Of a stretch of DNA of 64,000 nt, positions 12,001-29,365 are shown piece by piece (positions within the stretch are counted from its first letter, which is position 1; every line of letters starts with the position of its first letter). The notes under the pieces were generated by a model. It was not told the origin of the DNA. It worked only from the letters and a program-made list of their open reading frames with translations, and searched no databases. A program made the position numbers and the translations under genes. Location: positions 7,009 to 71,008 of the IMG/VR virus record IMGVR_UViG_3300032283_000645; one strand, written 5' to 3'. The stretch comes from a virus. Taxonomy: Duplodnaviria; Caudoviricetes.

Positions 12001-13480
12001 ACATTTTCTGACTTGCCACGAAGTCTGCGATAGCGGCTGCTCTTTCTTCTTCGGTGCGGGCTCCAGTTACATTGATTCCAAGTCTTTGACCCTTTTTTAC
12101 TTCTGGAACCTGAGAGGCTGCATTCAGAGTCATTTTCTGAATGTCAAAATTTATAGCAAATTTAGTATCAGCCAATTTTGAGCCACCTAGTGGGTGGGCC
12201 ATTGCTTCTTCCGTTTCCCCAAGTGGATGTTTTTTTGGGTCTTTGGATAACATGCCTGAAAATCTAATTACAGAAATTTCCTTTGCTACATGTGGGTCAC
12301 GGAGGTATGTTTCAAGAAGCCTTGTTAGAACGCCACGTTCTACTGCAAGTGCTGTTTCTGGAGTAAAACCTAGTTCTTTTGCAGCCTCAAGTTCTTCTGC
12401 TGACAGTGTTGCAAATGTTTTTTTAAAGTCAAGACTTTGATTAGATATATCAATATCCCATAAACCCATTTCTTTAAGTTTTGCAAAAGCAAGAAAAAGA
12501 TGTTCGTTTTGTGCTCGCTGTTCTGGGGTTACTTCAATCCCAAGTTCTGATACAAGATTGTCAACAGCGTCTTCCATCTCGACCATGCGAGCCTGCCCGC
12601 GCGTGCGAGCATTCTTCAACCATCTTGCTTTAGGTCGCTCTAATTTCTCTCGGTACCTATTAGCGGATGTTAATGAAGAGCCTGACATATCACGGATGGA
12701 CCTGCTTCCAAAACCAGTTGCTCTTTGGTGTTTCCACCAATCACCAAGTGAATCAAGACCACGTTGTGCTATTTCACGTATTTGAGCGGCGGAAATAGCG
12801 AAACAAGTGCTTCCAAATTTGTCTGTGAACTGGTTGGCTTGAGGCGTGCCCGGTGGGCACCGGAATTTTCCCAAGTCGTCCACCACCACCTTAAACTGCT
12901 TGGCTGCTCTTTGTGCAAGACCACCAGCGGGATTCATTTGGCGAATTGAACGACCAATTGATTTTACTGATTCAGCATTTTGTTCAGCAACTTCACGTTC
13001 ACTAAGTTTTCTTGCTGGTTCCCCATCTTTATCAACCTCATAAACATCAAGGGTGACTCGTGGTTCCTTCATTAGCTGTTGAATTGATTCTTTAAACGTA
13101 TTTGCCGTAGGAGGTGTTGGTTCTTCAACCCAACCAAAGTTGGCATGTTTATCCAAGCCTTCACGAACATTCATCGGAGGGAATAGGCGGAGTTCCATAC
13201 CAGGACCACCCTTTGCAGAAGGGTCGTATCTCCATCCATCTTCATTTTTGATTCCCGGAAGTTCTTTTTCTTCCTTCTTTGGTGTTTGTTCTTTCTGGCT
13301 CTGAGCAACAGTCTTGCCAATACCCTTGACCATTATTTCGTCGCTATTAGAGATTGACTTTGCTGATAATTCAAGTCCATCTAGGAAATCAGCGACGGCT
13401 TCCTCTAACCTCTCTTGGTCATGACCCATAGCACGTTGAGAGATGATGAACCGATTCATTCTTGGATTGTTGCTGTCCAT
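9044..13480 (-). CDS. 1478-aa multidomain putative internal head protein (zincin-like HExxH peptidase, degenerate ART-like domain, DUF3626-like domain)
   Basis: HTAAHEIGHV + ELSAELYA; TLTALEKSKLPSNLVVRF...MLPPGRIFITG; ERPVSGY...DGDIEIILRPEVSGRTAYGFG. Confidence 0.65.
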   Translation of the reverse strand: MDSNNPRMNRFIISQRAMGHDQERLEEAVADFLDGLELSAKSISNSDEIMVKGIGKTVAQSQKEQTPKKEEKELPGIKNEDGWRYDPSAKGGPGMELRLFPPMNVREGLDKHANFGWVEEPTPPTANTFKESIQQLMKEPRVTLDVYEVDKDGEPARKLSEREVAEQNAESVKSIGRSIRQMNPAGGLAQRAAKQFKVVVDDLGKFRCPPGTPQANQFTDKFGSTCFAISAAQIREIAQRGLDSLGDWWKHQRATGFGSRSIRDMSGSSLTSANRYREKLERPKARWLKNARTRGQARMVEMEDAVDNLVSELGIEVTPEQRAQNEHLFLAFAKLKEMGLWDIDISNQSLDFKKTFATLSAEELEAAKELGFTPETALAVERGVLTRLLETYLRDPHVAKEISVIRFSGMLSKDPKKHPLGETEEAMAHPLGGSKLADTKFAINFDIQKMTLNAASQVPEVKKGQRLGINVTGARTEEERAAAIADFVASQKMFAGGMAAAIAVDGRKGKGVHTAAHEIGHVIQMMQWKKLMLAKYSNKELNEMTSGQIVDSMKDLGDGIDFTDLGVTRESMEAVAILGGKYPLDLYRAEGMSQLWAIELSAELYALRDMGILEGDDIDSALEWMDRTAKAKDATHRANTRKRQMALVAKEMSKPLMDGDRPDYPIDPEDGGKPPKPRKPPRVFTSKKDSDSFGKSTRRKQIEKLNEQEGGAIERIGDPATTRVASLLDGDPTQEILAIHRDHKRLRRIGELPDKFDIYEGSVAEQIEHTLIPTLTALEKSKLPSNLVVRFQPKSTANPGEMLSIPELKSFQLEHDELGLPPGTIAIELGPDASGIFVPSDPFDSSVDEAGKFGRVMLPPGRIFITGTDADGRITARLVDQESSSESLQRMIDNWPTKGDSKFEDGILRREKSAAQKLVDNHNEKVRAGGGEVLPDGRSGPVLAREIRRNNEDIVDRLRRSGGRPTRPDREYVDGLASTSNASSAGFDDAFGLASTPIERRIDRDNVLNQVISDISAGSFPDNPELAEMISSMTPQEIKEQLEGVVFDIHDSIDRRPRLRMNELDIDSMMDMSFPRVQPIDGSGNPDRIRENRLRDLIESMPEFKLPETEKPSSSLTDLTPEQIQDALKGVEFEGKPGYYSFGQTGAPRKHEVEYQSRIGIHPSTPDTERPVSGYVVHKSQRDMTVNALKKKGIVAGDMPFEYESENTPIGNVGVDGDIEIILRPEVSGRTAYGFGRGSEQQTRPVWMNSDEPDDIMDALLHPTSDNYKTRFANAMIVSDDNDVASFMNSKRIKPSKLSENYDSELDSFYSDLSGQQPLGAHIMGGFKKDEIAAVVHPWSKVQGASKDVDISDAIEQEPISEKLSRLGFSPEEIQYFYSLNGNSLGSINTSAMQQLRAFRKSQEVSDKYKKMGIPEVQFAHKHGLDMLAPSSYSLTNQDEGGVEDVLKARIQIEIDNELKAALKKIQKTRGELTEINL

Positions 13481-13493
13481 TGGACTCGCTTAA

Positions 13494-14870
13494 TTAAATA
13501 TCTTGTGATTCGTCGCTAAGAAGCTGAAACTCAAGGAGTGAGCGCTTGAATTCTTCGTCTTCAATGCTTGCCATTTCATCTTTTTGACTCATTACCCAAT
13601 TTGAAGGAATAAGTTTTTCAAGACCAAGTGCTTTAGCTCGCTTCATAATATGACGCTTCGCTGCTTCTTTATCTTTTGCCCTACCAAATGCTTGGATTGC
13701 ATTCTTCAAGTCACCCTCGGTCTTGATTGGGTATGAACCGTCTGGAAGTGCCATGCCACTATTTGCTAGTTCTTCACGGCTTTCATCAGAGAAGGCTCGC
13801 TTCAGTGCGATTTCAGCCGCTTCAGCCTCAATCTCTTCTGCTTCTTCTTGCTCGTACTTGTCGTAACCAAGAACTTCGCCGTCAAGAGAAACGAAAACAT
13901 CATAAGACTTCCCGTCAAGACCTTCAATTTCGACCGCATAAGAATCAATCCCTTCAAACGAATCTGGCTCAATACTGACAACCTCACCATCAATTGACTT
14001 GGTGGCGATATCGCCAGCTTCATCAAATGTGATTAAAAGAAGTTGTTCAGATTTCGTCTGAATACTACCGTAACTATCGGTCAAGCGATGACCATGAATC
14101 TGTCCAGTAGTTCCATTAATAAATACATCAAATGTTTTTCCATCTTTTCTTTGCACACCAACTACATACATATCTGCATTTGACACATATCCAGAATCAA
14201 CAATGTCACCCTTAACGAGAGTCTGCGCATAACCTTCTGCATGCAACAAAGTCATTTGACCTTTTGTTCCAGTGCAACCACCAGGGCATGATGCACATGG
14301 CGGAGTTCCGCCAGGGTAAACCTTCCCGTCCATTGCGCACTTGTATCCGCCCAAGCCAGCGTCCATTGCTTTGATTCCCATTTGATTAAGACGAGCTTGG
14401 CGGAATTTTTGCATCATTCCGACTTCTTCGTCTTCAAGCATGTCTTCTTCGTCTTCGTCTTCTTCCTCGGAATCATCTTCGTCAGCCATTTCGCCTTCAG
14501 CATTTTCTTCGGCTGCGCGTTCGCCCTCTGGCATTGATTCTTCTTCTTCTTCGTAAGGAACTTCAGCGGTCTCGTCGTCTTCCGTCATGGCATCTTCCAT
14601 TGCGCGTGGACGTGGTTTCTTTTTCTTTGGCTCTTCCATTGAAGCCATTGCTTCATCGGCTGCTTTTTCGTTCAGCGCCTTTTGAAGCATTTCGTAGTCT
14701 TCGCTACGGAGAACCTTCATTTCAATAGGAAGCGCTCCACACTTACCGCAAACTGGAGAACCAGCACTGTAACCACAATCTGCAGAGCCAAGTCCTTTTG
14801 CGCATTTAAGGACATTGCCTTCTGTGTCAATGCTGACACCAGCTACTTGATTCGGGCTATTTGAGTCCAT
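13494..14870 (-). CDS. head-module protein: two Cys4 clusters, acidic tract, PepSY-like repeats, C-terminal DUF6582-like domain
   Basis: CAKG..DC..VCGKC; CAMD..PCASCPGGC; EVVSIEPDSFEGIDSYAVEIEGLDGKSYDVFVSLDGEVL; LPDGSYPIKTEGDLKNAIQAFGRA...RAKALGLEKLIPSNW. Confidence 0.65.
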   Translation of the reverse strand: MDSNSPNQVAGVSIDTEGNVLKCAKGLGSADCGYSAGSPVCGKCGALPIEMKVLRSEDYEMLQKALNEKAADEAMASMEEPKKKKPRPRAMEDAMTEDDETAEVPYEEEEESMPEGERAAEENAEGEMADEDDSEEEDEDEEDMLEDEEVGMMQKFRQARLNQMGIKAMDAGLGGYKCAMDGKVYPGGTPPCASCPGGCTGTKGQMTLLHAEGYAQTLVKGDIVDSGYVSNADMYVVGVQRKDGKTFDVFINGTTGQIHGHRLTDSYGSIQTKSEQLLLITFDEAGDIATKSIDGEVVSIEPDSFEGIDSYAVEIEGLDGKSYDVFVSLDGEVLGYDKYEQEEAEEIEAEAAEIALKRAFSDESREELANSGMALPDGSYPIKTEGDLKNAIQAFGRAKDKEAAKRHIMKRAKALGLEKLIPSNWVMSQKDEMASIEDEEFKRSLLEFQLLSDESQDI

Positions 14871-14947: not shown

Positions 14948-17900
14948 CTATTCTGAACGGAACTTATCAAATTCTTCGGTACTAATTCCAAGCTTCTCAA
15001 GCAACTGATTTAGTTCTATTGGGCTTAGTGAGAATGGAGCTCGACGAGCGGTTGCACTAGATGACCGTGGGTCGTTGATGAGTTTCTTAACCGTTGAGAT
15101 TGATGGTTTTCTGCCCGTAATTTCAAAAATTGCATCAACAACCTGTTGAGGGAAACCCCTTCTTCCTCGTGCCGAGTCAAAAGCCTGATTACCAAAGACA
15201 TCAGCCAATGGGAGGCTGTCTGTCCTGCCGACTGTTCTCGTGACTGGTTGTTTATCACCATAAATGCTGTCTGCTGTCATTTTTGACTTCCTTGCTTTTA
15301 GCAAGGTGTTTACTTCGTCTCTCGTAATGCCTTGAGCCAAGATTCTTCTCCAAGTCTTATCTGAGAAGACATCATTATTATTTTTCATAATTGAATACTG
15401 TGACGCAGTCTCACTTATACCAATTTCTTCAAGAACTGGACGAGCATCTAGGTATTCCCTTCGACTTGCCGTTCTTCGAGCTCGTGCTCCGGGTGCATCT
15501 GGGGCTAGGTCTTCAACATCTGGAATGTCGGCTGCATCCAAAATCGGATTTCCAGATTGGTCATAATAGAAAAGTGGGTCATTGTTTGCGCCCCACAAGT
15601 CCCTGCCTCCGCCAACTTGTATGCGTAGATTATCCAGAAGGTATATGTCTCTTGTTCTTGCACCCTGTTTACGCATCTTTTTAGCCACTTCAACTGGCAC
15701 CCCAAGTTCGGAAGCAAGTTGGTCATCACTCATGTTTTCTGTTCCGCCAAACCTTCTGGCAGCACGTCTAATGATTGGCTCAAAACCCCATGAACGACCA
15801 GCACCGTCATCCCCAATGAAGATGTCGCTAGGAATCATGTCAATAGGTCCACCTTGTGAGGAAAATCCATATTCAGATGCACTTGGTCCGTCACGACGTT
15901 TGCCTGGTCGCTTCTTTGAGCGAAGTTTGTCCCCATCGGCATAACGCTGACGGTCTTCAGGCGACCAACGCGCCTTGGGGGTGCGAGGACGCTTATCGTT
16001 ACCTCGTGAAGGGAAACCGCCCCTATTTCCACGCAGTGTCATTCTGTTAAGGGCATCCCATTGCCTGTCAGATAGTTCTCCATTTCGGTCATACTGCTCA
16101 ACGACACTCCTTGTGAACGAAGTGTTCATTCTTCTAGCAATGGAGATAATTTCATTCTTTTCTGGAGTGCTGAGGTTCATTCTGCTTGCAAAACCATCAT
16201 CTTGCGATGGTTCTTCAGGCATCATGTATTCTTGTTCCATCAAGTAATCTTGAGCGGCATCGTATGCCCAGTCCATTGCATCAAGCTCGTCTGGGTCCAT
16301 TGAATCTGCGCCAGATGCAAAGCCACCTTCATAGACCTGACCGTTTTCGTCAAGCAATGAACCGGTTTGTGGGTGGTCAAACGCTTGAGCCCATACAACC
16401 TTGTTATCGTCACTCAGCATTGAAGGCTTGAGTGATGCTTGGTATGCGGTTTCGCCCAGTTCGTCTGCATAGACATTGTCCCACTGACCAAGAACTCTGG
16501 TTTTACCCTTGTCCTTACCATTGGTGATGATTTGCTCTGCTCTTACGAAGTATGTATCACTTCCGCCGTCGTAACCAACAATCACTTGCTGGTTTCTGTT
16601 AACTGGAAGAACCATTTCGTTATTGCGCTTATTTGCTCGTGTTCCAGAAATTGCCATGAGATTTCCACGACCGATTTGTGAGAGCGCTGTTCGCATATCA
16701 AACTCACTTGGCTCGTATCCGCCAGGTGTTGGCCAGTCGCCGCGTGAAGCAAAGCCTTCAACAGCAACTACAGGCTCAGTTGGGACTGCAATGTCTGGAT
16801 TCTCAAATTCTGCCTTTTCACCGTTGGAGAACTTGCTCTTGGCATTAGGAGAAATATCAAGAATGTAGTTGACTGCACTTTGAGCATCCTTCATCGCTCT
16901 TTCAAGCGCGGTTGGGTCATCCTTGAGTTTCTTAATCCAAGACGCTAGATATGGGCCGTGGTTCTCTTGAATGTTTGGCTCAATGTTGTGTGCCGACATA
17001 AACATTGCAGATGCAATTTCTGCAACCAATTCTTCGTATGCATATTCTGGTGTGCCAAAACGATTCATGTTCTCTCTACCAAGACGGTCTTTACCACCAG
17101 TCCAGTGCATGAGTTCATGAGCTGCTGTTGAGTAATATGCCCGTGCATCTTTGAAGTTTTCAAATAGTGGCAATTGAATGAAGTCTTCAGATGGACTGAA
17201 GTATGCTTCGTCTCCACCATTTTTAATGACAGCAGGAATTTCTGAAATCGTCTTCTCTAGGTCGGCAACGCGTTCTGATTCTGGAAGAATTTCCTTCTTG
17301 TCAAAATCCTCTGGCATTCCATCAATTTGGTCAAGGTTGAAAACCGACCGAGAAATGAAGCTAACTCTTCCTTTTTCTTCAGTTCCATCAGCCTTTTCTT
17401 TGCCCTTAATGAAGATAGGAACAAAGATTGATGTTGCTTTTTCGCCCTTGCGAACCTGTCCGCCAACACCTTGCCATTGGTCATAGGTTGCCCACTTGTT
17501 TGAGTTGTAACCCTTGACATCAGCCATTGCAGTCAGGAAGAACCAGTTTGAACCAGAGTACTTATGACCGGTTGTTCCGTTTTCTGGCATCCCAGTTCTT
17601 CTCCATGGGAGTTGCCATTTGCCAAGTTTTTCAGATTCAGAAAGAGCATCAATGAGCTGTTTCGTCATCTCAGCATAAACTTCTTCTTTAGACTTTTTCT
17701 TTGAACCGCTCGCTCCTCTTGAAGCAAATCCACGAGGGGTCAGTCCAAAGACATCACCATCTGAATATCCTCCAAGAATCGAGAGCGGGTCAACTTTTGG
17801 GCGGTCGCCGCCAGTCTTTGGGGTAGAGCCCTTAATGATATTCTCTATAATTTCTCTGCGCTTATTCTCAAGGTCAGACGCTGCTGCAGCCATCTCAAAG

Positions 17901-20900
17901 GCGTCCATGTTCTTTACAAACAGTCTTTCAAAATCTGTTTCTGAAAGACCCAAGTCAACAAGCATGTCATCAATTTCTTTTTCGCTCATTGTTGGGTTCA
18001 TTTCCTCTGCTCTGGCTCTTGCCCAGAAAGAGTAGTCATCGCTGGCCTTCTTGAGGGCTCGTTCAAGGGTAATCAAATTTGCCTTTGCCTCTTCGTCGTA
18101 AAGTCTTCCTATTTCTTTGTCAATTTCTCCCACTGTTGCACCATCACGGTCCATTTGGTTAAAATATGCGCGATTGTTATCAATCATGTCTTCGGCAACT
18201 CTTCTTTTTTGACCTGTTGTCATCTTGGACCACGGTACGGTATTGATTGATGGCTTATATTCAGCCGAATCAGCCCAAACCCCACCCCCAGCTGGTGGAA
18301 GAACTCTGTCAAGAGCATTAAAGATTCCAAAGTTGTCATCGAGTTCTTTGTCAAGAAGGGCCATGTCGGCGATTTCTGGATTAAATGCAGATGTTTGACG
18401 TGAAGCGAATCCGTCCATTGGTTCTTCGTCCATATAGTCATATTCTTCGGGCATGTCGGCAGCAAGTTGGTCAATTGACCGCCTCATTCTGCTTATATAA
18501 TCTTCTGCTTCAGAGATATCGGTTGAATCGCTTTCAAGAGGATTGTCAATTAGCGACTCAGCAGTCAAGAATGCTAATCCATCCAGACTGTATGCACCAA
18601 GTTCCCTATCGCTTATGCCGAGAGAATTGACTTCGTCTCGTAGACGAGAGAATACATCCATGAGCGAATTAGAACGTTCCTCACGGAGTTCTTGTGCCCT
18701 TTGAGCCCAAAACTCGTACGCATCTTCAAGACTTGGTGCTTCTTCATCAAATTCATTAAGGTATGCCTCCATGACCATTTCGTCATTCTTGGCTTTGTCT
18801 TCAGGACTGTAACCAAATTCTCTTAAATCGTCGTACTCTTCATTAAGCACACCACCTGAAGCGAATCCGTCATCATCCAATAAGTCTGCTGGTTCGCCAT
18901 CTGGCCCAACCGGGAAACCATTTTCGTCGTAGGTTTGTACTATCCTCTTGCGTTTTGGAGATGATGGCTTGGCAAATATTCTTGGTCCGTAGAACTCAAT
19001 CAATTCATCAATCCGTTGCTTTCGCTCTTCGGGGTCGGTGATTTCAGCAAGGGCTTCTCTGTCGTCAGAGTGCATTCTTGAAGGAACAATCCTTTGACCA
19101 GTACTGCTCTCGTTAATTGATGCACGTGAAGCAAATCCATCGTCTGCATCGCCACCCCTGCCAAACGTGCTCTCGTATGTCGCTGCTCGTCTATCATTGT
19201 CATTTTCTAAACGCAACTCATTCACGTAGTTCTCAGCAAACTCACGCACCAGCGAGCCAGCCTCATAAGAGGTGTCCGCATCTGCCGTGTCCACTACCAC
19301 TTCTTCTGGTGGCTCATCTCTGTTGAACCCTCTAACGGTTTGAATTCTCTCCACACCGTATGTTCGCTTTTCTGGGTTGTAGGAAATCCGAATGTAGTCG
19401 CCCTCATTAGTGCTTGGGTAAACGAGAGTGCCAGCATCGCTTTCTGGGTTTGCCAAGTTGGCAGCAACATCTGGGTCAATTGGCTTATTCCGTTTTCCGT
19501 TTCTAGAGCCAGGATTTTTCAAGTCTCTTTGAATTTTGGATTGCAGGTCTTGAAGTTCTTGACCCATTGAGGCAAATCCATCACGACCATTTCGTCGTGC
19601 ATTCATCTTCTGAATATCACTAGTTGTGTATGCGCGCTTGTTGTAGTTCGTTGCTCGACCATTTTCGTCAAGGTAGAAACCATTTGCGTTTGTACGATTG
19701 GTGATTTTTGGATTTGACCTCTCGCCCATATCACCCGCATCACCCATTGAATAAAATGCTGATTCAGGGATTGCTGATTCCGTTGTGAATTCAAAGTCAT
19801 CACGGACTCTGCGGAGTGTTGCTCCACGGCTATCCGATGCTTCAATGTCGTCAACTACTGACTGAGGAACATTCTTATAAACATAGAATTCACCAGTTCC
19901 TTTGCCATCGCGTCCACGATACTCAACACGAAGTTCACGCTTGCTTGGGTCATACTGAACACGGTTGAGCGCAGCACTTGAGCCAACATCAACATTTCTG
20001 TAACCCATGCCAAGTTCTTCTGCTTGCATTTCCATCATTGCAATTTGACGGTCGTCATATGCTCGTTGTTTTGCATCAGCAGTAATATCTTCTGCGGAAG
20101 TTCCGCTTCCTGCATTGATTGCAGAATCAACTGCTCGTGCAAAGTAACTACGTTGCTCTTCTGGTCCAATCTTGTCCCAGTGTGAATCAACCTGCGCCTC
20201 GTATCCACCAGCACCAACTTCATCAGATGCACCTGGAGTACGTTCCATTCTGTCGTCTGCACCAGCACGTCGAACCGACTTGGATGCTTTGAGTTTATTG
20301 ATTACCTTGCCCTTGGATGAGGAGGATGCAAGTTCGTTGGCTTCATCTGGCGTTACACCTTCATAGATGTAACTTCCACCAGGGGCTCCATCTTTGCCCT
20401 TGAATGTAACGACAAGTTCTTCTGTATTTGGGTCATAATACGACTCTGATAGAGCGGCACTTCTACGGACATCAATGTCTTGAATTTCAGAACGCCCACT
20501 TGGTGAGGTTGTTTTACGAGTGCGTGTTGCATAGTCTTTTCCAGCCCATGCCTTAGCCGCCTCAAGTGTTTCGTATTGTCCCATTCTGTCTACTTCGCTG
20601 CCTGAGCGTTTAGAATAGGCAGAAGCACGGTAACCACCTGCTCCATCAGGGCTGATTGTGTAGTAGTAGTCATCACCTTCAGCCAAAATGGCTCCAGTTC
20701 TTGAACCTCTTGTGGTTGACCAAGAACCAAGTTTTGCTGGGGTAGAAGCAACTTCTCCACGGCCATTGATTGCATCAACTGTTCTTGGGTTCGTTACTTC
20801 AACGTCGTAGTTTTTCTTTACGTCATTGATTACACGACCAATTGAGTTTGAACCACTGACCTCATTGTCAAAGTAGTCTGCAGGAACTCCAGAGTAGGTG

Positions 20901-23900
20901 TAGTAACGAGCATCGCCACCAGTCTGTCCAGGCTTAAATGCAACATGGAGTTCACCGGTATTGCGGTCATAGTGAACTGCTTCAATTGCACTTGAGTTTG
21001 GAGTTTCAAAAGTGTCAAAGCGTGAACCGCCACGTGATGCAAATCCACTGTTATATCTCCCTAAATTATCACTATCTAGGAATGGATAGTCATCATATTC
21101 TGCTTCTGCTGTTCGGTATCTATCGTCGGTGGTATCAAAAATTTCCTGCGTGACATCGTAAAGCATGTCTTCGGCTTTTCCGTAACGACCATCACGTAGC
21201 ATTTTTTCAATTTCACTCTGTTTTTCCTCACTCCAATCAACAGATAGATTATTTTCATCTACCAGATAATTGATGTCTCTCATGAGGCTGATGTATTCAT
21301 AATGTGCATCTTCAAATGACAGTTCGTCCAAGTCTTCAGCTGATGGGCGAGTAATACCTCTCCGTGTCTCAACCAAATCATTTGCTTCACCACTCAATGT
21401 TGCTGCTAAGCCCATTTCATCATTAAGACGTTCTTTTTCAGAAACCATCTCGTCCATCATGTCTTCAATTTCACCAAGACTAAAAGACATCTCTTGCTGT
21501 GCGTCAAAGAGTCTTTCCCATTCAGGACTGTCTTCATCAAGACCATCAAGCATGTTTTCTGCTTCATCAATTGCAGTGGTTAGTTCAGCTTTTGCTTCTC
21601 CGAGTGTTGAGACTCTTTCGTATGGTTCCATGTCCTCAAGGGTTCTTGCACCATATTTATCTTTTAGACTTTCAAAGTCTTGAACCGTTCTTGTTGCGTT
21701 ACCTCCACGGGAGGCAAGACCGAAGTCTTCCTCACCAAGCGTGTTGGCATCGTCTAGGTTCTTTTCTCTCTTAAGAACATCTTTTCTTAGAGATTCCCTA
21801 ATACTGTCAAGGGTTTCTCTTGCTTGTTCGTAATCAGAGTAATTAGCACTCAACGGGTTTTTGATTATTTCTTCTGCATAAGCAAATGCTGGGCCATGGT
21901 AAGGCTTTGTTCTGCGCTCAGCGTCTGTAAAATTTGCTTTAGCTATGTCTTCCAACTCGTTGAGTTCACCGAGCATCTCATCGGTATACTTCTCGCGCGT
22001 TTCTAAGCCTCTTCCATTCCATTCGTCTGCGGCAAGTGACAGTTTGTCTGCAGCGTCATAATCTCCATCAGAGAAATAGTCATCTGCTTCCAATTCAGCA
22101 ATAAAGTCTTGTTGGGATTGACGGTCAATTTCATCCCATCTTGACATCGTGCTGATGTCGTTGTCATCAATTTGTACAGGTTTTCCAAAGCCGTAAATGT
22201 CCAATTCGCCATCCTGCGAAGAACCACGTGAACCAAATCCCATATCTCCAGCATCGCCAAAATCGGCGAAGTCTGGGTGGAATTCTGGGTTCTGCTGGAG
22301 GAAGTCGTCGTAGTCAAAGCCGCCTTCTTCTAGCTCATTCTTAATTCTTGCCCAGTCTCCACGACCGTTGAGATAGTTCTCAATTGACTCATACAAATCA
22401 GATTTTTCTTTACTAGTCAAATCAGAGTATGGGCGCATTTCCAGCATCTCATCACCACGTGAACCAAATCCGCGCTGACGCTCGTTGTAATCATCAGCTG
22501 CTGCTTCGATATAGTTGTCGTAAGCAAGAGCCATTGCATACAGCGAATCGCCGTCTGCTTCTTTTAGGTATTCGTCATGGATTGCATCATTTTCAATCCA
22601 GTAGTCGGCAACTCTTTCTGCTTCATCCCTATCTGCACCGCTCCCCTTGAGCGCTTCAATTGCTTCTTTTCTGAAATCTTTTGCAAATCCGTATTTCTCT
22701 GGATTTGCCATGAGGTCTTCAATCATCGCCTCAGAGGAATGGTCGCGTGCGCCTGGGCGTGGGCTACCAGGGTTGTCTAGGTAGTACTGTGCATCAAGTT
22801 CTCCAAGCAAATCATCATTGGAATTAAGAAATTCTTGGACATCTTCTGGCAACCATTTGCCGAGGTCGTTATTCTTTCCAGGAACATCAAGTCTGTCGCC
22901 TCGTGAGGCGAATCCATTACCCCGAAGATTTGCATAGCCATTAACGTTTTTCAGGACTTCGTTGATTGCGAAGCGTTCGTTTGGCTTTATGGTTGGTCTC
23001 ATCTTATAGAGGTTGGCGAGTTTTCTGATGGCGGCTTCCTCTTGTGGGCTTACCTTCCCATCACCTTTTCTCACCTTGTCTAGTCCACTCATTGCCATTC
23101 TGTACTCACTCGGTGAGAACTCGTCAGAAAGGAAGTCTCTGTTCCCTCTTTGCAGAATTCGTTCGCCATCATTTGGCATACGTGAAGCAAAGCCATCTAC
23201 TTCGTCATCTCCACTCTGCGTCTTGCGCACTAATATGCGTTCAACTGCATTAGCGCGAGTCTCAAGACTAGAGACACCCTCTGCTTCGTAGTCGCGCCCC
23301 ATAACGCCGCCGTCGCGTTGGAGAAGAACGAATCTTGCCTCGCTGTATTTTTCGCGTGCTTTTTCAAGTTCCTTCTCAAGTTCAGGAAGCGACATTTCCA
23401 TCAATGAGCGGTAGTCGGATTCAATCCTTTCAAAGTCCTGAGTTTCAGGACCACTCCTAGTCGGTCGTGGTAATAGGTCAGCAATAAATTCATCATCGGA
23501 TAGGTCTAATCTTGCCTGTCTTGCGACCTTCTCTGCTAGTTTTTGTTTTCTTTTTTCGTTAAGAAGCAGTTTCTCAAGTTGAAGCCGTGTTTCAACACCC
23601 TCAAATTTTTCTTCGCGTCCAAAGAAGTTGGCCTTGTCATCATTCGTGACATCTCTGCTGGTCTTGATTTTTTCAAGGGCATTGATGGACTCACTTAGAT
23701 TCCTAGAGGCACCCAGTTCATCAAGTTCTTCCTTACTTACATCTTGGAGAATGTAAGTCTGAAGTTCTACGCGTGTGTATGGAATTGCCCCACTTTCATC
23801 TGGCTCGCCCTTCTTCCAATATCCACCGGTGGAAACAAATAACTCCTTGCTTACATCGTCGTAAATAAGGTCATTAACAATTTCATCGCTTAAATCAATT

Positions 23901-26900
23901 TCCTCAACGGCTCCATCATCTACGACACCTCTAACCCGACCCGGCTTGATTCTGCTCAAAGAGGCAAAGCCATCATCTGCGTTTTCTGCGTCTACCATTG
24001 CATCCGTTAGGTCGTCTAATTTGTTCTCATGTTTACGCAACTTTTTGACAAAGTCATTTGCTTCACTGCGACTTATTCGGTAATTTCTCATCACAGATTT
24101 CTTGACGTCCTCGTCGGACATTTGGGTGTAATCCATGAAATACTCGCCATACTCACGGTCAAGGAAGTTTTTGAAATCCTCTAGTTCCTCTAGAGGAGTT
24201 GGCTTATCGGTTAGTGAGGAACCACGCGAGCCAAAGCCGTCACGACTCCTCATGTAGTCGTCGTAGTCTGGTTCATATCTGGAATTTGCTTGCTCAACCA
24301 TTCTGTCGTATTGGTCGTCTAACAGTTCACGATAGAAACGTGTAGTTATTTCATCAGCAGCTATATCTCTAACAGCATCGTCGTCAGACTGATACCTATC
24401 AAACAAATCTTGAAGTTCTGCATCACTCAGTGGCTCTCTGTCACGGTTATAAAATTCTGGCTTATCGTTGAATTTTTCCAATTTGTCAAATTCAATTTCA
24501 CCATTGCCGACATAGTCATTTAGATAATCTTCAATAAATTCGTCTGAGATTTCGTCGTCATCTGGGTCAAGGCTTCTATTGGAACCCCAAAGTCCACTGC
24601 CCTCACCACGCGATGCAAAGCCTTCATCTCTTGATGCGAGACCGCTTCTACTTTGTGGCTTCTTTTGCTCTCTCTGCAGTGCACTGATTAATGCATCTGG
24701 TTTGTCATCAGTTCCGGCTTTACGGACACGGTCATAGGGAACATCATTGAATGTTTCTTTTTTGCCATCTCTGTAATAAACAGTGAGGTCACCATTCTGT
24801 GGGTCGTAATCAATTTGTCTTGCAAGTTTGGAATTCTTAGGGTCCATCTGCATAGCTACAGCGGTGCGTGGTGGTCTCTGTCCTTCTGAAGTGGTTTCTC
24901 CACGTGAAGCAAGACCACGAGCACTATCACGACCTTGTTCAAGAATTAAGTCTTGTTCATCTGCCGACAAACTTTCAAATCTTGAATTCTCTGTTTCAAG
25001 GTCTGCTGGGTTTACTAGGTCTGCAAACTCTTTGTCAAGTTGACCATAGAAGCCTTCTTCGTATGATGCAAAAATATCTTCAGCATCTGCTTGGAGACCT
25101 GAGTCAGTTGACCAGTCACCCTCTGGCAACAAGTCGCCAATTCTTTCAGCAGGTGAATCTCCCGCCCACTCTCCACTCAATGGACCACCAGTTCCGTCTT
25201 GAAGCAAGAACGAAACGATGCCTTCTTCACGGATGGTGTCTTTGTCTTCATCGCTGAGATTCTTCAAGTTGTCTGCAAGAATTTGAGCTCGTCCAGATGC
25301 AATGTCTGAACCACGCTTGCGTGAAGCATCAATTCTGTTCTGTTGCTCTGGTGTTACATCACTACGACTGCCAAAACCTCTTGTGGAACGGCTCTTTGAC
25401 CATTCTTTCATTGCATCAAGCACCGCCGACATTGGAACTTCTTGCATAACCTCATCTGGTTTTGATGCATTGAAAGTCTCACGACCCGTTGATTCTGTCC
25501 TCTTTGGTGGAACGAATTCTTTTCCAAACTGTTGCTTATAAGCATCACGACGAGAGAACTCATGTGAAATCTTAAAGAGTTCTGCATCTGTCTTTTCTCT
25601 TTCAGAACCAGTTTGTCCACGACGAGCAGCAACGAGTTTTTGTCCTTCTACACGGAGACCTTCCTCGGACATGTCCCAATACTTTGCAATGCCTTCGTTT
25701 TCTGGTCGACGATTAGCAAGGAATGAAATGTCGTCCATCGTGCGTGGTTGCAGGTCTCCAGCAGCCAATGCTTCTTGACGCTCTTGGCCAGACAAAAGAC
25801 TTGGGTCTTTATCTGGCTTCTTGCCAGTTCTAATTGTTGGCTTGTCAAGAATTTCATTTGAGTTGCGATTCCTTCCAGCAACATCTGGAAGATTCATGTC
25901 TGGCTTCTTGATTGGAATGTACGGTCTCTGGAATGTTGTACCGTCTTGTGCAAATCCGTCGTTGTCACCGTCAATTGCAAATGGGTTGAACGACTGTGCA
26001 AGGGTGCGGAGATTTCCTACCGATTGACCAATCGTTTGACCAATTGCCTTCACGGCATTCTGGAGTGCATCAATAGCTTGTGCCGAGATACTTCCATTAA
26101 CAATAATTCCATTATCAGAATCAGTTGTTGAAAGATTGTGATAATTAAATACTGGCTGAAGCATGCTCTTGGCTTGAACCATGTGACTTTGTGGAATTTC
26201 AATGAGGTGTGCATATGCGGACTTACCGACACCAACCTGACCGCCAAGCATGGTATTCATTTCATCTTGGTCATCGTCTCGGTATGGCATTTGTTGTGGC
26301 TGTGCAGGCATCATTGATGCATCGGCTGGCTTCACTTCAATCTGTTGTTGAACTGTTGGCTTGTCTTCACTTCCAGCATATGCTTCTGGCTTTCCAAACA
26401 TAAATGTGTTGTAACCATCTGGTGTGTGGTAGCCAACTCTGTACATTGAAACTTTTCCGTCAGTAGTTGTTCTGCGGAAAACAATGAAACTATCTGTTGC
26501 TTCAACAATGTCCACTTTTGAACCAGTTCTTTCACTGAGTTCTGTTTGAATCTTTTGAACTTTGTCCATTTCAAGTGGTTGTGCAAGACCTTCAGCAAAA
26601 ATATTAAATGGTTCGTCTTGCCCTTGTTCTTGCTGTGGTGCTGCAACAACAATCATTCGAGGCTGTTGTGACTGTCCGCCCATCATTGGCATGCCAGCAA
26701 TAATTGGCATCATGTGATTCTTTGATTCGCTCTTTACAGAGATGGTTCCAGTCAATTGGTTGGCACCATGAAGCACCGGTGAGACTTCGTAGAGTTCTAC
26801 TTCTCTAAGGACATTTGCTTGTTGTGCTGTGTCAAACGCACCATTGATGGTTTTGTAACCAATGGACCATTCCTGCTCTTCTCCAAAGAATGCAACGCTC

Positions 26901-27238
26901 GCAAATGCTTCTTTGCCTTTTTCTGACTGGAGGTTAAATTGAACCTTTGCATACAAACCACCGATTCCAGCATTTCTCATCTTTGCTGGAAGACGTGGGT
27001 CTCCTGCTGGAACTTCGTACATCTCAAGGACTTTTCCGATTGGGTCATTCCAGCTGTGAGCCCATACAACTCTTGGTTTACGACGGGTGAGGCTCTTGGC
27101 AAATGCTCCAGTTACAACGATGTCGCCTACTGAGTCTTTATTGCCAATTCCTGCAACGAAACATTCAACAATTCCCTGCAGTTCGTCAAGAGCGATTGCT
27201 CCGGTAGCTGCTGATTTGAATTCAAATTTTTCGTTCAT
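14948..27238 (-). CDS. 4096-aa giant: HK97-family prohead protease fused to a linker-punctuated array of modules (5 KTSC, ArdC, acidic modules, HTH-like units)
   Basis: Protease motifs KDSVGDIV, VWAHSWNDPIG, EWSIGY, LYEVSPVLHGAN. Start moved from the track's 27277 to ATG 27238 because it has a GGTGGA RBS and a -10 TATGAT lies at 27266-27271. Confidence 0.9.
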   Translation of the reverse strand: MNEKFEFKSAATGAIALDELQGIVECFVAGIGNKDSVGDIVVTGAFAKSLTRRKPRVVWAHSWNDPIGKVLEMYEVPAGDPRLPAKMRNAGIGGLYAKVQFNLQSEKGKEAFASVAFFGEEQEWSIGYKTINGAFDTAQQANVLREVELYEVSPVLHGANQLTGTISVKSESKNHMMPIIAGMPMMGGQSQQPRMIVVAAPQQEQGQDEPFNIFAEGLAQPLEMDKVQKIQTELSERTGSKVDIVEATDSFIVFRRTTTDGKVSMYRVGYHTPDGYNTFMFGKPEAYAGSEDKPTVQQQIEVKPADASMMPAQPQQMPYRDDDQDEMNTMLGGQVGVGKSAYAHLIEIPQSHMVQAKSMLQPVFNYHNLSTTDSDNGIIVNGSISAQAIDALQNAVKAIGQTIGQSVGNLRTLAQSFNPFAIDGDNDGFAQDGTTFQRPYIPIKKPDMNLPDVAGRNRNSNEILDKPTIRTGKKPDKDPSLLSGQERQEALAAGDLQPRTMDDISFLANRRPENEGIAKYWDMSEEGLRVEGQKLVAARRGQTGSEREKTDAELFKISHEFSRRDAYKQQFGKEFVPPKRTESTGRETFNASKPDEVMQEVPMSAVLDAMKEWSKSRSTRGFGSRSDVTPEQQNRIDASRKRGSDIASGRAQILADNLKNLSDEDKDTIREEGIVSFLLQDGTGGPLSGEWAGDSPAERIGDLLPEGDWSTDSGLQADAEDIFASYEEGFYGQLDKEFADLVNPADLETENSRFESLSADEQDLILEQGRDSARGLASRGETTSEGQRPPRTAVAMQMDPKNSKLARQIDYDPQNGDLTVYYRDGKKETFNDVPYDRVRKAGTDDKPDALISALQREQKKPQSRSGLASRDEGFASRGEGSGLWGSNRSLDPDDDEISDEFIEDYLNDYVGNGEIEFDKLEKFNDKPEFYNRDREPLSDAELQDLFDRYQSDDDAVRDIAADEITTRFYRELLDDQYDRMVEQANSRYEPDYDDYMRSRDGFGSRGSSLTDKPTPLEELEDFKNFLDREYGEYFMDYTQMSDEDVKKSVMRNYRISRSEANDFVKKLRKHENKLDDLTDAMVDAENADDGFASLSRIKPGRVRGVVDDGAVEEIDLSDEIVNDLIYDDVSKELFVSTGGYWKKGEPDESGAIPYTRVELQTYILQDVSKEELDELGASRNLSESINALEKIKTSRDVTNDDKANFFGREEKFEGVETRLQLEKLLLNEKRKQKLAEKVARQARLDLSDDEFIADLLPRPTRSGPETQDFERIESDYRSLMEMSLPELEKELEKAREKYSEARFVLLQRDGGVMGRDYEAEGVSSLETRANAVERILVRKTQSGDDEVDGFASRMPNDGERILQRGNRDFLSDEFSPSEYRMAMSGLDKVRKGDGKVSPQEEAAIRKLANLYKMRPTIKPNERFAINEVLKNVNGYANLRGNGFASRGDRLDVPGKNNDLGKWLPEDVQEFLNSNDDLLGELDAQYYLDNPGSPRPGARDHSSEAMIEDLMANPEKYGFAKDFRKEAIEALKGSGADRDEAERVADYWIENDAIHDEYLKEADGDSLYAMALAYDNYIEAAADDYNERQRGFGSRGDEMLEMRPYSDLTSKEKSDLYESIENYLNGRGDWARIKNELEEGGFDYDDFLQQNPEFHPDFADFGDAGDMGFGSRGSSQDGELDIYGFGKPVQIDDNDISTMSRWDEIDRQSQQDFIAELEADDYFSDGDYDAADKLSLAADEWNGRGLETREKYTDEMLGELNELEDIAKANFTDAERRTKPYHGPAFAYAEEIIKNPLSANYSDYEQARETLDSIRESLRKDVLKREKNLDDANTLGEEDFGLASRGGNATRTVQDFESLKDKYGARTLEDMEPYERVSTLGEAKAELTTAIDEAENMLDGLDEDSPEWERLFDAQQEMSFSLGEIEDMMDEMVSEKERLNDEMGLAATLSGEANDLVETRRGITRPSAEDLDELSFEDAHYEYISLMRDINYLVDENNLSVDWSEEKQSEIEKMLRDGRYGKAEDMLYDVTQEIFDTTDDRYRTAEAEYDDYPFLDSDNLGRYNSGFASRGGSRFDTFETPNSSAIEAVHYDRNTGELHVAFKPGQTGGDARYYTYSGVPADYFDNEVSGSNSIGRVINDVKKNYDVEVTNPRTVDAINGRGEVASTPAKLGSWSTTRGSRTGAILAEGDDYYYTISPDGAGGYRASAYSKRSGSEVDRMGQYETLEAAKAWAGKDYATRTRKTTSPSGRSEIQDIDVRRSAALSESYYDPNTEELVVTFKGKDGAPGGSYIYEGVTPDEANELASSSSKGKVINKLKASKSVRRAGADDRMERTPGASDEVGAGGYEAQVDSHWDKIGPEEQRSYFARAVDSAINAGSGTSAEDITADAKQRAYDDRQIAMMEMQAEELGMGYRNVDVGSSAALNRVQYDPSKRELRVEYRGRDGKGTGEFYVYKNVPQSVVDDIEASDSRGATLRRVRDDFEFTTESAIPESAFYSMGDAGDMGERSNPKITNRTNANGFYLDENGRATNYNKRAYTTSDIQKMNARRNGRDGFASMGQELQDLQSKIQRDLKNPGSRNGKRNKPIDPDVAANLANPESDAGTLVYPSTNEGDYIRISYNPEKRTYGVERIQTVRGFNRDEPPEEVVVDTADADTSYEAGSLVREFAENYVNELRLENDNDRRAATYESTFGRGGDADDGFASRASINESSTGQRIVPSRMHSDDREALAEITDPEERKQRIDELIEFYGPRIFAKPSSPKRKRIVQTYDENGFPVGPDGEPADLLDDDGFASGGVLNEEYDDLREFGYSPEDKAKNDEMVMEAYLNEFDEEAPSLEDAYEFWAQRAQELREERSNSLMDVFSRLRDEVNSLGISDRELGAYSLDGLAFLTAESLIDNPLESDSTDISEAEDYISRMRRSIDQLAADMPEEYDYMDEEPMDGFASRQTSAFNPEIADMALLDKELDDNFGIFNALDRVLPPAGGGVWADSAEYKPSINTVPWSKMTTGQKRRVAEDMIDNNRAYFNQMDRDGATVGEIDKEIGRLYDEEAKANLITLERALKKASDDYSFWARARAEEMNPTMSEKEIDDMLVDLGLSETDFERLFVKNMDAFEMAAAASDLENKRREIIENIIKGSTPKTGGDRPKVDPLSILGGYSDGDVFGLTPRGFASRGASGSKKKSKEEVYAEMTKQLIDALSESEKLGKWQLPWRRTGMPENGTTGHKYSGSNWFFLTAMADVKGYNSNKWATYDQWQGVGGQVRKGEKATSIFVPIFIKGKEKADGTEEKGRVSFISRSVFNLDQIDGMPEDFDKKEILPESERVADLEKTISEIPAVIKNGGDEAYFSPSEDFIQLPLFENFKDARAYYSTAAHELMHWTGGKDRLGRENMNRFGTPEYAYEELVAEIASAMFMSAHNIEPNIQENHGPYLASWIKKLKDDPTALERAMKDAQSAVNYILDISPNAKSKFSNGEKAEFENPDIAVPTEPVVAVEGFASRGDWPTPGGYEPSEFDMRTALSQIGRGNLMAISGTRANKRNNEMVLPVNRNQQVIVGYDGGSDTYFVRAEQIITNGKDKGKTRVLGQWDNVYADELGETAYQASLKPSMLSDDNKVVWAQAFDHPQTGSLLDENGQVYEGGFASGADSMDPDELDAMDWAYDAAQDYLMEQEYMMPEEPSQDDGFASRMNLSTPEKNEIISIARRMNTSFTRSVVEQYDRNGELSDRQWDALNRMTLRGNRGGFPSRGNDKRPRTPKARWSPEDRQRYADGDKLRSKKRPGKRRDGPSASEYGFSSQGGPIDMIPSDIFIGDDGAGRSWGFEPIIRRAARRFGGTENMSDDQLASELGVPVEVAKKMRKQGARTRDIYLLDNLRIQVGGGRDLWGANNDPLFYYDQSGNPILDAADIPDVEDLAPDAPGARARRTASRREYLDARPVLEEIGISETASQYSIMKNNNDVFSDKTWRRILAQGITRDEVNTLLKARKSKMTADSIYGDKQPVTRTVGRTDSLPLADVFGNQAFDSARGRRGFPQQVVDAIFEITGRKPSISTVKKLINDPRSSSATARRAPFSLSPIELNQLLEKLGISTEEFDKFRSE
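16845..17700 (-). other. ardC: ArdC-like module (ArdC N-terminal ssDNA-binding domain + polyvalent metallopeptidase) inside the giant ORF
   Basis: WQLPW, GHKYSGSNWFFL, WATYDQWQGVGGQVRKGEKA, SVFNLDQIDG, AYFSPSEDFIQLP, AHELMHWTG, YAYEELVAEI, HGPYLASWIKKL. Confidence 0.9.
19785..24845 (-). other. five KTSC-like domains inside the giant ORF
   Basis: Pattern S-x2-[IL]-x3-YD-x4-L-x-V-x-[FY]...Y-x-Y-x2-VP...S-x-G at ~24716-24845, ~23660-23900 (degenerate), ~20800-21010, ~20268-20475 and ~19785-19998. Confidence 0.8.
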
Positions 27239-27265
27239 TTTCCACCAATCAAATAGAGTGTTTAA

Positions 27266-27300
27266 ATCATAAGACACTTATTTGATAAGGCACTGCAACT
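27266..27300 (-). promoter_or_regulatory. 21-bp-spacer promoter motif upstream of giant protease gene (AG-TTGCAG-N21-TATGAT)
   Basis: Counted directly from the sequence. Confidence 0.6.
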
Positions 27301-27343: not shown

Positions 27344-29365
27344 CTAGTAAATTGAATTCCAAGCCTCGTTTGTCTCTTCAAGAGCAACTTCGTGACGGAT
27401 TTTTCCGTGAAGGTGTGTGTACATCTCAATGATGTCCTTCTTTAATGACTCATGTCGAGCCTCTTCGCCAGGAGTATTGACTGCATTGATAATCGCAGTC
27501 TTTACCTGACTAAACATATCGGAATTGAGTTGCTTAAGGTTCTCAATATGTCGGTAAACCTTGACATTGATTTCAAGTTGATTCCAAGTTGCGCTTGGTT
27601 GCTTTACTTCAATGGCATCTTTGACGATTGCCGACAGAACTGGCTTAATGTCTTCTTCTAGTTGTTTATTCCAAACATCTGGACTCAGGATTGATTCTGC
27701 TTCAAGGGTTCCAGCAAAGAGTGCTTTACGAGACTTGACTCCGTTTGCTTTTTCCATGACAACACGTTGCTGTCTTTCAAGAACTCGCTCAAGCGAACGG
27801 TCTAGAATTTCAACCCATCTATCCATGGTTCGTGATGGTTCTTCTGACTTGTAATTCATAACTGAACTTGCTGATGCCATACCCTCTGGGAGTGGGGCTG
27901 TTGCAGTTTCTGGAGCGCCAAGTGGTGGGGACATTTCTCCTGGAGGGGCACCAACGCCGCTCGTTGCAGCAGCCAATGCTCCAGCCATAGTGTTCGGGTC
28001 AAGACCCGCAGGTGGCGCACCTTCAACTGGTGGCACGCCTGGCGGCATTGCGCCCTCTGGTCCTGGTGGCATCCCTGGTGCTCCTGGAGCCCCTGGTGCT
28101 CCGCCAGCCATCATTGGTGGCTCTTCCATCTTCTTCTTGGTATTTGCAATTGGCGTCAAGTTTGGATTCATCAACAACGAATCAGCCAAGTCTGCATCAA
28201 CTTCTTTACGACCGCTCATAAGGCGATATTCGTTCACACTAATTAGACCTTGTGAGAGTTCGTCCTTGAGGTACCTTTCACGCTCCTGCTTGTAGAGCAT
28301 AAGAACAGGAACGAGACTCGTGTCAAAGTCAATGTAGTGCACAGGGTCAAGTTCATCAAGCGCGCGAGCAAGTGGTTCAAGATGAGGAAGCATTGTCTCT
28401 GTCCAGAACACTCGGATTTCTTCGCTTGCATTGCTAAAGGTTCTGCCAGCAGCATTACCGATTACTGTTTCAGGAACACCGAATGCTGCAAGAATTTCTT
28501 CTTTTGTAATCTGTCGCATTTGGATATATGCAGCATCACGTGGGCTTGCTGAAACATCAACAAAGTCAACACCATCATCAGCAGAAAGAACTGTGGTTCT
28601 TCCTGTTGTGGCAAGGTTCCCCCTGAATCTGCTCTTTAGTTCTTCCTTGTCATCGTCGTCAATTTCACCTTTGACAACAAGAAGGCTTCCTGGTCGACCA
28701 TCATTCATCAAAAAGTTTCGGTTGTACAGTTTTGCAAAGTTTTCAATCTCAATCGCAATACCGGCTGATTCCATTGGTGTTAATGAAAGGTAAGGGTCAA
28801 GCGGGTGTGGTCTTCTTACCCACACAACATCATCTGGCTTGAGGATTACTGGTTCGCCGTTAGGCATCATCACTTCGTATCCAGAGACAAACTTCTTTGG
28901 GTCTGGGATTGGCGATGTTGCCTGGGGTGGCAAAAGATTCAAACCAATGATGTCCCCATCGCGTCCACGAACCTTTTCAATAAATGCGCCGCGAGTTCCA
29001 AGAAGTAACTGCGAGGAAAGTCTGTAGCGGAAGATGAATGAGTTTTCACCAATGTTTGACTTTGTGTTCAAAACCTGAAGGAGTGTTGAGTCTTCTGCTT
29101 TTTTGCCGACAATGATTTCACCGTCAGGAGAATTGTCTTTTCTGAGAATAATTGGAAGCCTTGCTTGGTTTCCAGCGATTACATCAATACATCTAGCCAC
29201 CCAAGTGACTCGCTGCATTCCTTCTCTATAGGCACGCTCAATATCCCATGAGTCTTTATACGGTCTGCCAACAAATGATTGGTCTTGCGCTACGGGCGCG
29301 CCGGGTCCAATAGACTTGGTATTGATATTATTTAGGGCTTTATTTGAACCTGTGTTCCATGCCAT
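27344..29365 (-). CDS. portal protein, HK97 family, with Pro/Gly/Ala-rich linker and C-terminal helical extension
   Basis: VARCIDVIA..ARLP, LLLGTRGAF, LSLTPMESA, YNRNFLMNDGRP, RQITKEEILAAFGVP, FSNASE, LISVNEYR. Confidence 0.93.
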   Translation of the reverse strand: MAWNTGSNKALNNINTKSIGPGAPVAQDQSFVGRPYKDSWDIERAYREGMQRVTWVARCIDVIAGNQARLPIILRKDNSPDGEIIVGKKAEDSTLLQVLNTKSNIGENSFIFRYRLSSQLLLGTRGAFIEKVRGRDGDIIGLNLLPPQATSPIPDPKKFVSGYEVMMPNGEPVILKPDDVVWVRRPHPLDPYLSLTPMESAGIAIEIENFAKLYNRNFLMNDGRPGSLLVVKGEIDDDDKEELKSRFRGNLATTGRTTVLSADDGVDFVDVSASPRDAAYIQMRQITKEEILAAFGVPETVIGNAAGRTFSNASEEIRVFWTETMLPHLEPLARALDELDPVHYIDFDTSLVPVLMLYKQERERYLKDELSQGLISVNEYRLMSGRKEVDADLADSLLMNPNLTPIANTKKKMEEPPMMAGGAPGAPGAPGMPPGPEGAMPPGVPPVEGAPPAGLDPNTMAGALAAATSGVGAPPGEMSPPLGAPETATAPLPEGMASASSVMNYKSEEPSRTMDRWVEILDRSLERVLERQQRVVMEKANGVKSRKALFAGTLEAESILSPDVWNKQLEEDIKPVLSAIVKDAIEVKQPSATWNQLEINVKVYRHIENLKQLNSDMFSQVKTAIINAVNTPGEEARHESLKKDIIEMYTHLHGKIRHEVALEETNEAWNSIY

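Follow-up and report, generated by a model that had tools for sequence, protein, structure and literature searches.

Architecture of the giant open reading frame

The DNA analysed here, from an uncultured lake phage, is a 64,000-nucleotide stretch (positions 7,009 to 71,008 of IMG/VR virus record IMGVR_UViG_3300032283_000645; Duplodnaviria, Caudoviricetes), hereafter the window, which is part of a 71-kb viral record that is approximately 48% complete. It contains a giant open reading frame (ORF; 14948–27277, minus strand; 12.3 kb) of 4109 amino acids (aa) counted from a GTG codon, in which a Peptidase_S78 domain is followed by a string of small modules separated by 22 copies of a short linker motif. 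This beads-on-a-string anatomy was proposed in an initial annotation of the DNA, and is borne out by Pfam matches, motif counts and shuffled controls. Translation probably starts at ATG 27235, 14 codons in, because this is where homologues start, because GGTGG precedes it at a distance of 4 nt, and because the resulting 108-nt gap to the portal stop codon is as in the relative L004; the predicted product has 4095 aa and a mass of ~460 kDa. The net charge of the whole chain is −266.

The ORF is not an assembly chimera, a possibility that the initial annotation had asked to be checked, since an independent 61-kb Logan contig, although it probably derives from the source sample, is identical to it from end to end, and more than 50 full-length homologues come from other assemblies. 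Megablast of the giant ORF against a phage collection gave no match, and no RNA dataset was listed for it.

The linker motif, G[FL][AGPS]S[RLMGQ], occurs 22 times between aa 634 and aa 3804, with 17 of the 22 copies ending in Arg; 2000 composition-preserving shuffles of the giant sequence gave a mean of 0.2 and a maximum of 4. From the N-terminus, all on the minus strand, linkers 1–4 are GFGSR (aa 634; 25364–25378), GLASR (aa 788; 24902–24916), GLASR (aa 879; 24629–24643) and GFASR (aa 886; 24608–24622); linkers 5–8 are GFGSR (aa 1014; 24224–24238), GFASL (aa 1103; 23957–23971), GFASR (aa 1362; 23180–23194) and GFASR (aa 1455; 22901–22915); and linkers 9–12 are GFGSR (aa 1603; 22457–22471), GFGSR (aa 1680; 22226–22240), GLASR (aa 1853; 21707–21721) and GFASR (aa 2078; 21032–21046). 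These are followed by linkers 13–16, GFASM (aa 2567; 19565–19579), GFASR (aa 2714; 19124–19138), GFASG (aa 2804; 18854–18868) and GFASR (aa 2956; 18398–18412); linkers 17–20, GFASR (aa 3183; 17717–17731), GFASR (aa 3508; 16742–16756), GFASG (aa 3652; 16310–16324) and GFASR (aa 3695; 16181–16195); and finally linkers 21 and 22, GFPSR (aa 3754; 16004–16018) and GFSSQ (aa 3804; 15854–15868). The 22 copies are encoded by 21 different 15-mers, with Ser drawn from both TCN and AGY codons and Arg from both CGN and AGA. Because the codons vary synonymously while the peptide stays constant, selection on the linker acts at the peptide level, in agreement with what the initial annotation had deduced.

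In an AlphaFold2 model of aa 3150–3770 (18-row alignment; mean predicted local distance difference test (pLDDT) score 55) all five linkers, 17 to 21, lie in coil with pLDDT <50, between folded parts comprising the ArdC-N and MPTase domains, a small beta domain and a three-helix unit; the linkers thus fall between folded domains and not inside them, as predicted. The peptide GDAGDMGERS (19715–19744, minus strand), compared with GDAGDMGFGSR at 22226–22258, had been recognised as a degenerate copy and taken as a sign of module gain by duplication. The degenerate copy is indeed present, but is better understood as a linker that has decayed, fusing two modules, since more distant relatives have a live EGLASRG linker at this site.

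Protease domain and fixed N-terminal unit

The Peptidase_S78 (HK97-type prohead protease) domain spans aa 37–187 (26717–27169, minus strand; Pfam PF04586, 41 bits against a cut-off of 21), and also matches the phrog_80 head maturation protease (E=3e-23). H74 and S138 (in EWSIGYKT), assigned as catalytic from the motif and not from a structure, are invariant among 26 and among 41 relatives. At the end of the domain the peptide L-T-G-T-I-S-[V/I]-K is likewise invariant (TISVKS, aa 179–183; 26729–26743, minus strand). A PDB sequence search with the protease domain returned no match. Foldseek of the N-terminal model, in which the domain has a pLDDT of 60–73, gave nothing at E≤0.001; the Epstein–Barr virus (EBV) protease and T4 gp21 were among its top matches, which were weak (E ~0.1, TM 0.3–0.4).

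The protease forms part of a fixed N-terminal unit (aa 1–636; 25370–27235, minus strand). A model of this unit, built on a 41-row alignment, has three or four small domains after the protease, with disordered stretches between them from which the linker motif is absent. Because these disordered joins lack it, the modelled unit indicates that the motif is not simply the appearance of a spacer in the giant protein.

Modules of the chain

The best-defined module lies between linkers 17 and 18 (16757–17716, minus strand) and consists of an ArdC-N domain (Pfam ArdcN, aa 3199–3306, E=1.4e-25) followed by an HExxH zincin domain (MPTase-PolyVal, aa 3340–3462, E=5.8e-38) with its HELMH motif intact, which is the architecture of ArdC, with its ssDNA-binding domain ahead of the zincin; in the AlphaFold2 model it folds as a single unit with pLDDT 70–88. 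ArdC relieves type I restriction in the recipient cell (PMC7213743), and by homology the ArdC/MPTase unit is a putative anti-restriction module. A second recognisable module, with three KTSC domains (19580–21031, minus strand), lies between linkers 12 and 13, its tail being joined on by the decayed linker described above. Both modules are bracketed exactly as annotated, by the linkers at 17717 and 16742 and by those at 21032 and 19565, respectively. The giant ORF therefore carries Peptidase_S78, three KTSC, ArdcN and MPTase-PolyVal domains in one chain, the multi-domain composition of a polyvalent protein.

When 20 single pieces were searched individually against Pfam (E≤0.5), only a weak fourth KTSC match (E=9e-4) and sub-threshold noise were obtained. 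Approximately 17 pieces are without a family, and only the ArdC-N/MPTase and KTSC units match known ones; the description of the chain as a set of anti-defence and nucleic-acid-binding modules was overstated. Strongly acidic pieces make up 17 of 23 (pI 4.1–4.8, 20–33% Asp+Glu); in composition they resemble DNA-mimic anti-restriction proteins, a likeness that no fold or family supports.

The chain ends with two fixed units. The penultimate one is a 50-aa basic module (RWSPEDRQRYADGDKLRSKKRPGKRR...; pI 10.9; 15860–16009, minus strand), conserved in all clades examined; it is the most widely conserved cargo piece, with 46–55% identity across all clades, and in the relatives L006 and L007 it stands mid-chain, not near the end. 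The last is a C-terminal unit of 303 aa (14951–15859, minus strand), for which no family was found and in which helix–turn–helix (HTH)-like stretches can be seen by eye. The ESM Atlas gave no usable match for this unit or for one acidic module, and tblastn of the C-terminal unit against the phage collection gave none. Single-sequence pattern scans of IMG/VR recovered the ArdC segment at 8 loci and the C-terminal unit at 1 locus, and a word-limited search for stand-alone forms (81–259 aa) of the module at aa 1458–1605 found none.

Conservation of the linker across the family

The initial annotation had suggested that giant S78 fusions with repeated linkers might be sought in other genomes. We found at least 53 giant homologues, of 2,500–5,700 aa, in ENA, JGI, NCBI and Logan assemblies, nearly all of them headed by S78 (two lack the N-terminus). 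In IMG/VR, 421 stretches code for a protein related to the N-terminal unit. In almost every one of the 53, the commonest 4-mer is a linker. The linker occurs in clade-specific flavours, D-G-F-A-S-R-G in the clade of the window and [S/A]-L-S-S-G, K-L-S-S-G-[K/R], R-[L/F]-S-S-G, G-L-A-S-G-G or R-G-M-A-S elsewhere. The flavours have in common hydrophobic-[A/S]-S-[R/G] with polar, unconserved flanks; as Gly stands at the Arg position in other clades, the conserved core is hydrophobic-[A/S]-S, and a cut after Arg, as the initial annotation had it, is conjectural.

The S78 domain is present in every N-terminally complete member that carries the linker and, judged across these sequences, is the constant partner of the motif. 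MPTase cannot be the general partner, because seven members without it keep 6–11 core motifs, compared with ~1 expected by chance. The giant proteins of relatives add UvrD helicase, sigma70_r4, pentapeptide and RNase_T domains. One S78-headed protein, P0054 (4104 aa), has many HTH-type Pfam matches and no enrichment of the linker core; it contains five or six copies of a different peptide, ..ILSFFED.., and these may represent a joint of another type.

One relative, G001, is a complete genome of 148,355 bp with direct terminal repeats. All five related records G001–G005 (reached through L072, L073, L035, L015 and L030) carry WhiB genes, one to three each, which suggests that the hosts of the related genomes are Actinobacteria; WhiB was not found in the window's own 71-kb record, itself ~48% complete.

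Module shuffling at the linkers

When 31 proteins from the clade of the window were divided at the motif, 723 pieces resulted, which fall into 70 recurrent families. Between genomes the interior modules are reordered, duplicated or absent, while the N-terminal unit and the last two units (50 aa and 303 aa) are fixed. For 45% of BLAST segment ends there is a linker no more than 10 aa away, whereas the figure for random positions is 13%.

The same pattern is found between strains. Variant contigs from sister samples and from one freshwater run contain skips, replacements and one order swap in the giant gene, including a deletion of 270 nt that runs precisely from linker 6 to linker 5. Of 46 strain-variant breakpoints, 20 lie within 10 nt of a linker (7.8% expected, p=5e-11), some of these rows being interdependent and the list being confined to the joints with the best support. 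Linkers 5, 6, 7, 10, 11, 12 and 21 each serve as a strain-variant joint and linker 16 as several, while loose ends of variant contigs fall at linker 9 (one) and linker 14 (more than one). Across 17800–24650 of the window, co-occurring strains in the sister samples X2, X3 and X5, at 90–99% identity, are distinguished by deletions of whole modules, by replacements and by one swap of order; the cassette set is thus polymorphic within the samples of one study. Families, BLAST ends and strain breakpoints together bear out the expectation that modules would be found shuffled at the linkers.

That breakpoints between relatives and between strains fall on linkers could also mean that the motif is a DNA-level scar or hotspot of cassette exchange, with no role as a peptide. 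Such an origin would leave conserved DNA, whereas the 22 copies use 21 different 15-mers and it is the peptide that is conserved; in addition, homologous modules are flanked on both sides by differing clade-specific flavours. We consider a purely DNA-level explanation highly improbable.

The motif in two other genes of the genome

Of the window's 22 large genes, just three contain the tight motif: the giant ORF, a second giant gene and a gene for a tape-measure-like protein. The second giant gene (9044–13480, minus strand; 1478 aa) carries GFGSR at 12701–12715 and DGLAST/FGLAST at 10544–10558 and 10493–10507. In each genome the second giant bears that genome's own linker flavour, so that a matrix of 6 genomes by 5 flavours is essentially diagonal: GFGSR and two DGLAST-type copies in the window, three copies of [S/L]SL[S/A]SG in L004, four of GL[A/S]SG in L005, one KLSSGK in L006 and seven of R[L/F]SSG in L007. 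An RNase_T-type module, flanked by linkers on both sides, belongs to the second giant in one genome and to the first in another.

The tape-measure-like protein (42856–47718, plus strand; 1620 aa) contains SALASKG at 42979–42996 (aa 42), which aligns with KKLSSGA and SRLSSGA of two relatives, and GFASG at 44746–44760 (aa 631), which lies in a poorly alignable region. This protein has a glycine-zipper match, and its C-terminal stretch (SAYRT...GLGSPSSDH) appears cell-wall peptidase-like by eye. The comparative evidence is strong that the motif represents a functional inter-module signal common to these three virion genes.

It is nonetheless conceivable that the chain is never cut, the motif being a conserved spacer or a docking or threading element that engages the capsid interior, DNA or a chaperone, or that provides unfolded joints for the passage of a 460-kDa chain through the tail. 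N4 vRNAP and plasmid ArdC/TraC1 are transferred at full length (PMC5512222), the disordered, charged, Gly-rich surroundings of the linkers would suit such a role, and cleavage at them is only predicted. A plain spacer, however, needs no invariant core of 4–5 residues, should be present in the disordered joins of the N-terminal unit as well, and would not recur with one and the same genome-specific flavour in three different proteins. On balance we judge an uncut chain unlikely.

Genome context

On the minus strand the order of genes is large terminase (divergent), portal, giant ORF, a 458-aa gene, the 1478-aa second giant, five smaller genes and the major capsid protein, such that the packaging module of terminase and portal adjoins the giant ORF upstream, as is typical of polyvalent proteins. 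The synteny of terminase, portal, giant, a 460–570-aa gene and a second giant (1,456–3,592 aa) is kept in five relatives, in accordance with the head-module position beside the portal noted initially. The portal protein (27344–29365, minus strand) lies directly upstream of the giant ORF and is without the motif. The major capsid protein (3511–4818, minus strand; phrog_10) has neither an N-terminal propeptide nor the motif. The conserved 458-aa neighbour (13494–14870, minus strand), located between both giants, also lacks the motif; it has a Cys-rich N-terminus (C..C..C..C), orthologues of 458–570 aa in L004–L008, and a C-terminus with a weak match to the tail of phrog_80 ‘head maturation protease’. 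This protein may be a scaffold.

Proposed processing of the chain

The reading that best accommodates these observations, in which we place about even confidence, is that the giant ORF encodes a polyvalent cargo polyprotein that is cut by its own prohead protease at the linkers, releasing cargo that is packaged and injected. In this proposed mechanism the fixed N-terminal unit would supply the S78 prohead protease of the phage, and the interior would be an exchangeable string of ~20 small, mostly acidic modules, including the ArdC-type anti-restriction unit and the KTSC domains, ahead of the two units that stay fixed at the end. The peptide hydrophobic-[A/S]-S-[R/G] (here D-G-F-A-S-R-G) would be a processing signal recognised by the cis-encoded protease; the chain would be cut at the linkers into separate proteins, the second giant and the tape-measure-like protein would be cut at the same signal, and the freed pieces would be carried by the virion and would pass into the host together with the DNA.

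Several points weigh against this mechanism. Typical substrates of a prohead protease, namely the major capsid protein, the portal and the 458-aa neighbour, do not carry the motif, and it does stand in a tail protein, to which a protease confined to the procapsid should have no access. The linker flavours are not explained by visible changes in the protease, which is 67–97% identical across clades that differ in flavour. When we looked for protease residues that track the flavour, three alignment columns split the ASR and SSG types perfectly, but they coincide with one deep clade split and were set aside as uninformative. Exchange of modules between the two giants could account for part of their shared flavour, and the AlphaFold2 model is based on an alignment that has little depth outside ArdC (18 rows), possibly depressing confidence in those parts. 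The case is moreover a comparative one, with cutting itself a prediction. Complex prediction with the protease domain (26-row alignment) and a 35-residue linker peptide (16 linkers aligned) gave no verdict (score 0.00), which speaks neither for nor against binding.

Alternatively, the linkers may be cut by another protease, either a host enzyme or the in-chain MPTase zincin, with S78 serving ordinary head maturation only. The L27 site of the host protease Prp, FF/ASKKG, resembles GF/ASRG. The presence of the motif in the tape-measure-like tail protein, and its absence from the capsid protein and portal, would be natural for such an enzyme, and in phage 80alpha the capsid and scaffold proteins are cut between Phe and Ala by host Prp (PMC5744158). 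For the MPTase, the HELMH motif is intact in the window, and Iyer et al. predicted that MPTases process polyvalent proteins (PMC5512222); yet the seven family members without MPTase retain their 6–11 linkers. As for Prp, the WhiB genes point to actinobacterial hosts, whereas, of the controls, Bacillus, Lactococcus and Thermotoga contained the Prp family and Corynebacterium did not, which makes Prp unlikely in the probable host; furthermore, the long upstream Prp motif is absent and linker positions −8 to −2 are unconserved. Cutting by a protease other than S78 appears improbable to us.

If the cis-encoded S78 protease is the cutter, the timing of cleavage bears on where the motif is found: cutting before assembly or after ejection would fit a signal that is present in a tail protein and absent from capsid and portal. 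One doubtful but concrete version is that these ~150-kb lake actinophages thread uncut chains through the tail and that the protease heading the chain cuts them in the newly infected cell. We would suggest only tentatively that, with threading of this kind, one peptide code marks the joints of effector cassettes in two giants and the tape measure, and that at least 20 proteins are delivered at DNA entry. By analogy, and with similar reserve, such an arrangement might be likened to an RNA-virus or MARTX polyprotein system that is open and rapidly reshuffled.

Comparison with known systems

In RNA-virus polyproteins (with 3C/NIa-type proteases) and MARTX toxins, one chain carries its own protease and short cut sites between exchangeable units. 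They have no homology to the giant ORF, a structural gene of a tailed dsDNA phage, and the likeness serves as a model and not as a statement of membership.

The closest class is that of the polyvalent proteins of phages and conjugative elements described by Iyer, Burroughs, Anand, de Souza and Aravind in 2017 (PMC5512222). The giant ORF resembles these in combining unrelated domains in one chain, in its portal and terminase neighbours, and in the ArdC-N and MPTase hallmarks, and packaging, delivery with DNA and proteolytic processing were all predicted for them (PMC5512222). Polyvalent proteins have 2–15 domains, with assemblin-like peptidases ‘always at the C termini’ and processing attributed to MPTase, and the paper mentions no linker or repeated inter-module motif (PMC5512222). 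The giant ORF differs in its N-terminal S78 domain, its ~22 units and a clade-specific linker code common to two other virion genes. From its sequence the giant ORF belongs to the polyvalent-protein class, to which the N-terminal protease and the linker code are new. Our full-text literature search turned up no account of a protein with S78 fused at its N-terminus and a motif repeated between its modules; the initial view of an undescribed architecture holds for this variant, but not for the general class.

In T4, phiKZ and SPN3US, prohead proteases are known to cleave ejection proteins at short motifs (PMC5694885). T4 gp21 (which cuts after Glu and acts on capsid-targeting propeptides), phiKZ gp175 and SPN3US gp245 (A-X-E) resemble the proposed system in recognising a short motif that several virion proteins, ejected at a later stage, have in common; their substrates are encoded by separate genes, are cut once or a few times, and have sites mapped by mass spectrometry (PMC5694885). 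In the giant ORF, by contrast, the protease and ~20 putative substrates lie in one chain, the motif is hydrophobic-[A/S]-S-[R/G], and the sites are predicted from sequence.

Among cultured phages the closest protease and portal (41–44% identity) are those of Gordonia phage DalanDe and its Bendigovirus relatives. DalanDe gp27 also has S78 fused into a long (1633-aa) head-module protein, but there the protease is near the C-terminus, and the protein is without a repeated linker and without ArdC or KTSC matches. Phage 80alpha has a Phe-Ala(-Ser) site on its virion proteins, as in the linker, and differs in having one N-terminal site per protein, a long conserved upstream motif and a Firmicute host (PMC5744158). 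The idea that 80alpha gp44 is an HK97-type protease cutting at F/A was considered and rejected, since host Prp makes the cut and gp44 is one of the ejection proteins.

Should the linkers prove to be cut sites, a tailed dsDNA phage would be using a polyprotein strategy in which one gene encodes its own protease and an evolvable rack of ~20 delivered proteins. The 2017 prediction of processing for polyvalent proteins would then become a concrete rule that names the peptide, the enzyme and three substrate genes. Boundaries would also be set for ~70 unknown module families, which would be candidate early counter-defence or takeover factors in abundant freshwater Actinobacteria, and the chain would constitute a natural cassette system for loading proteins into capsids.

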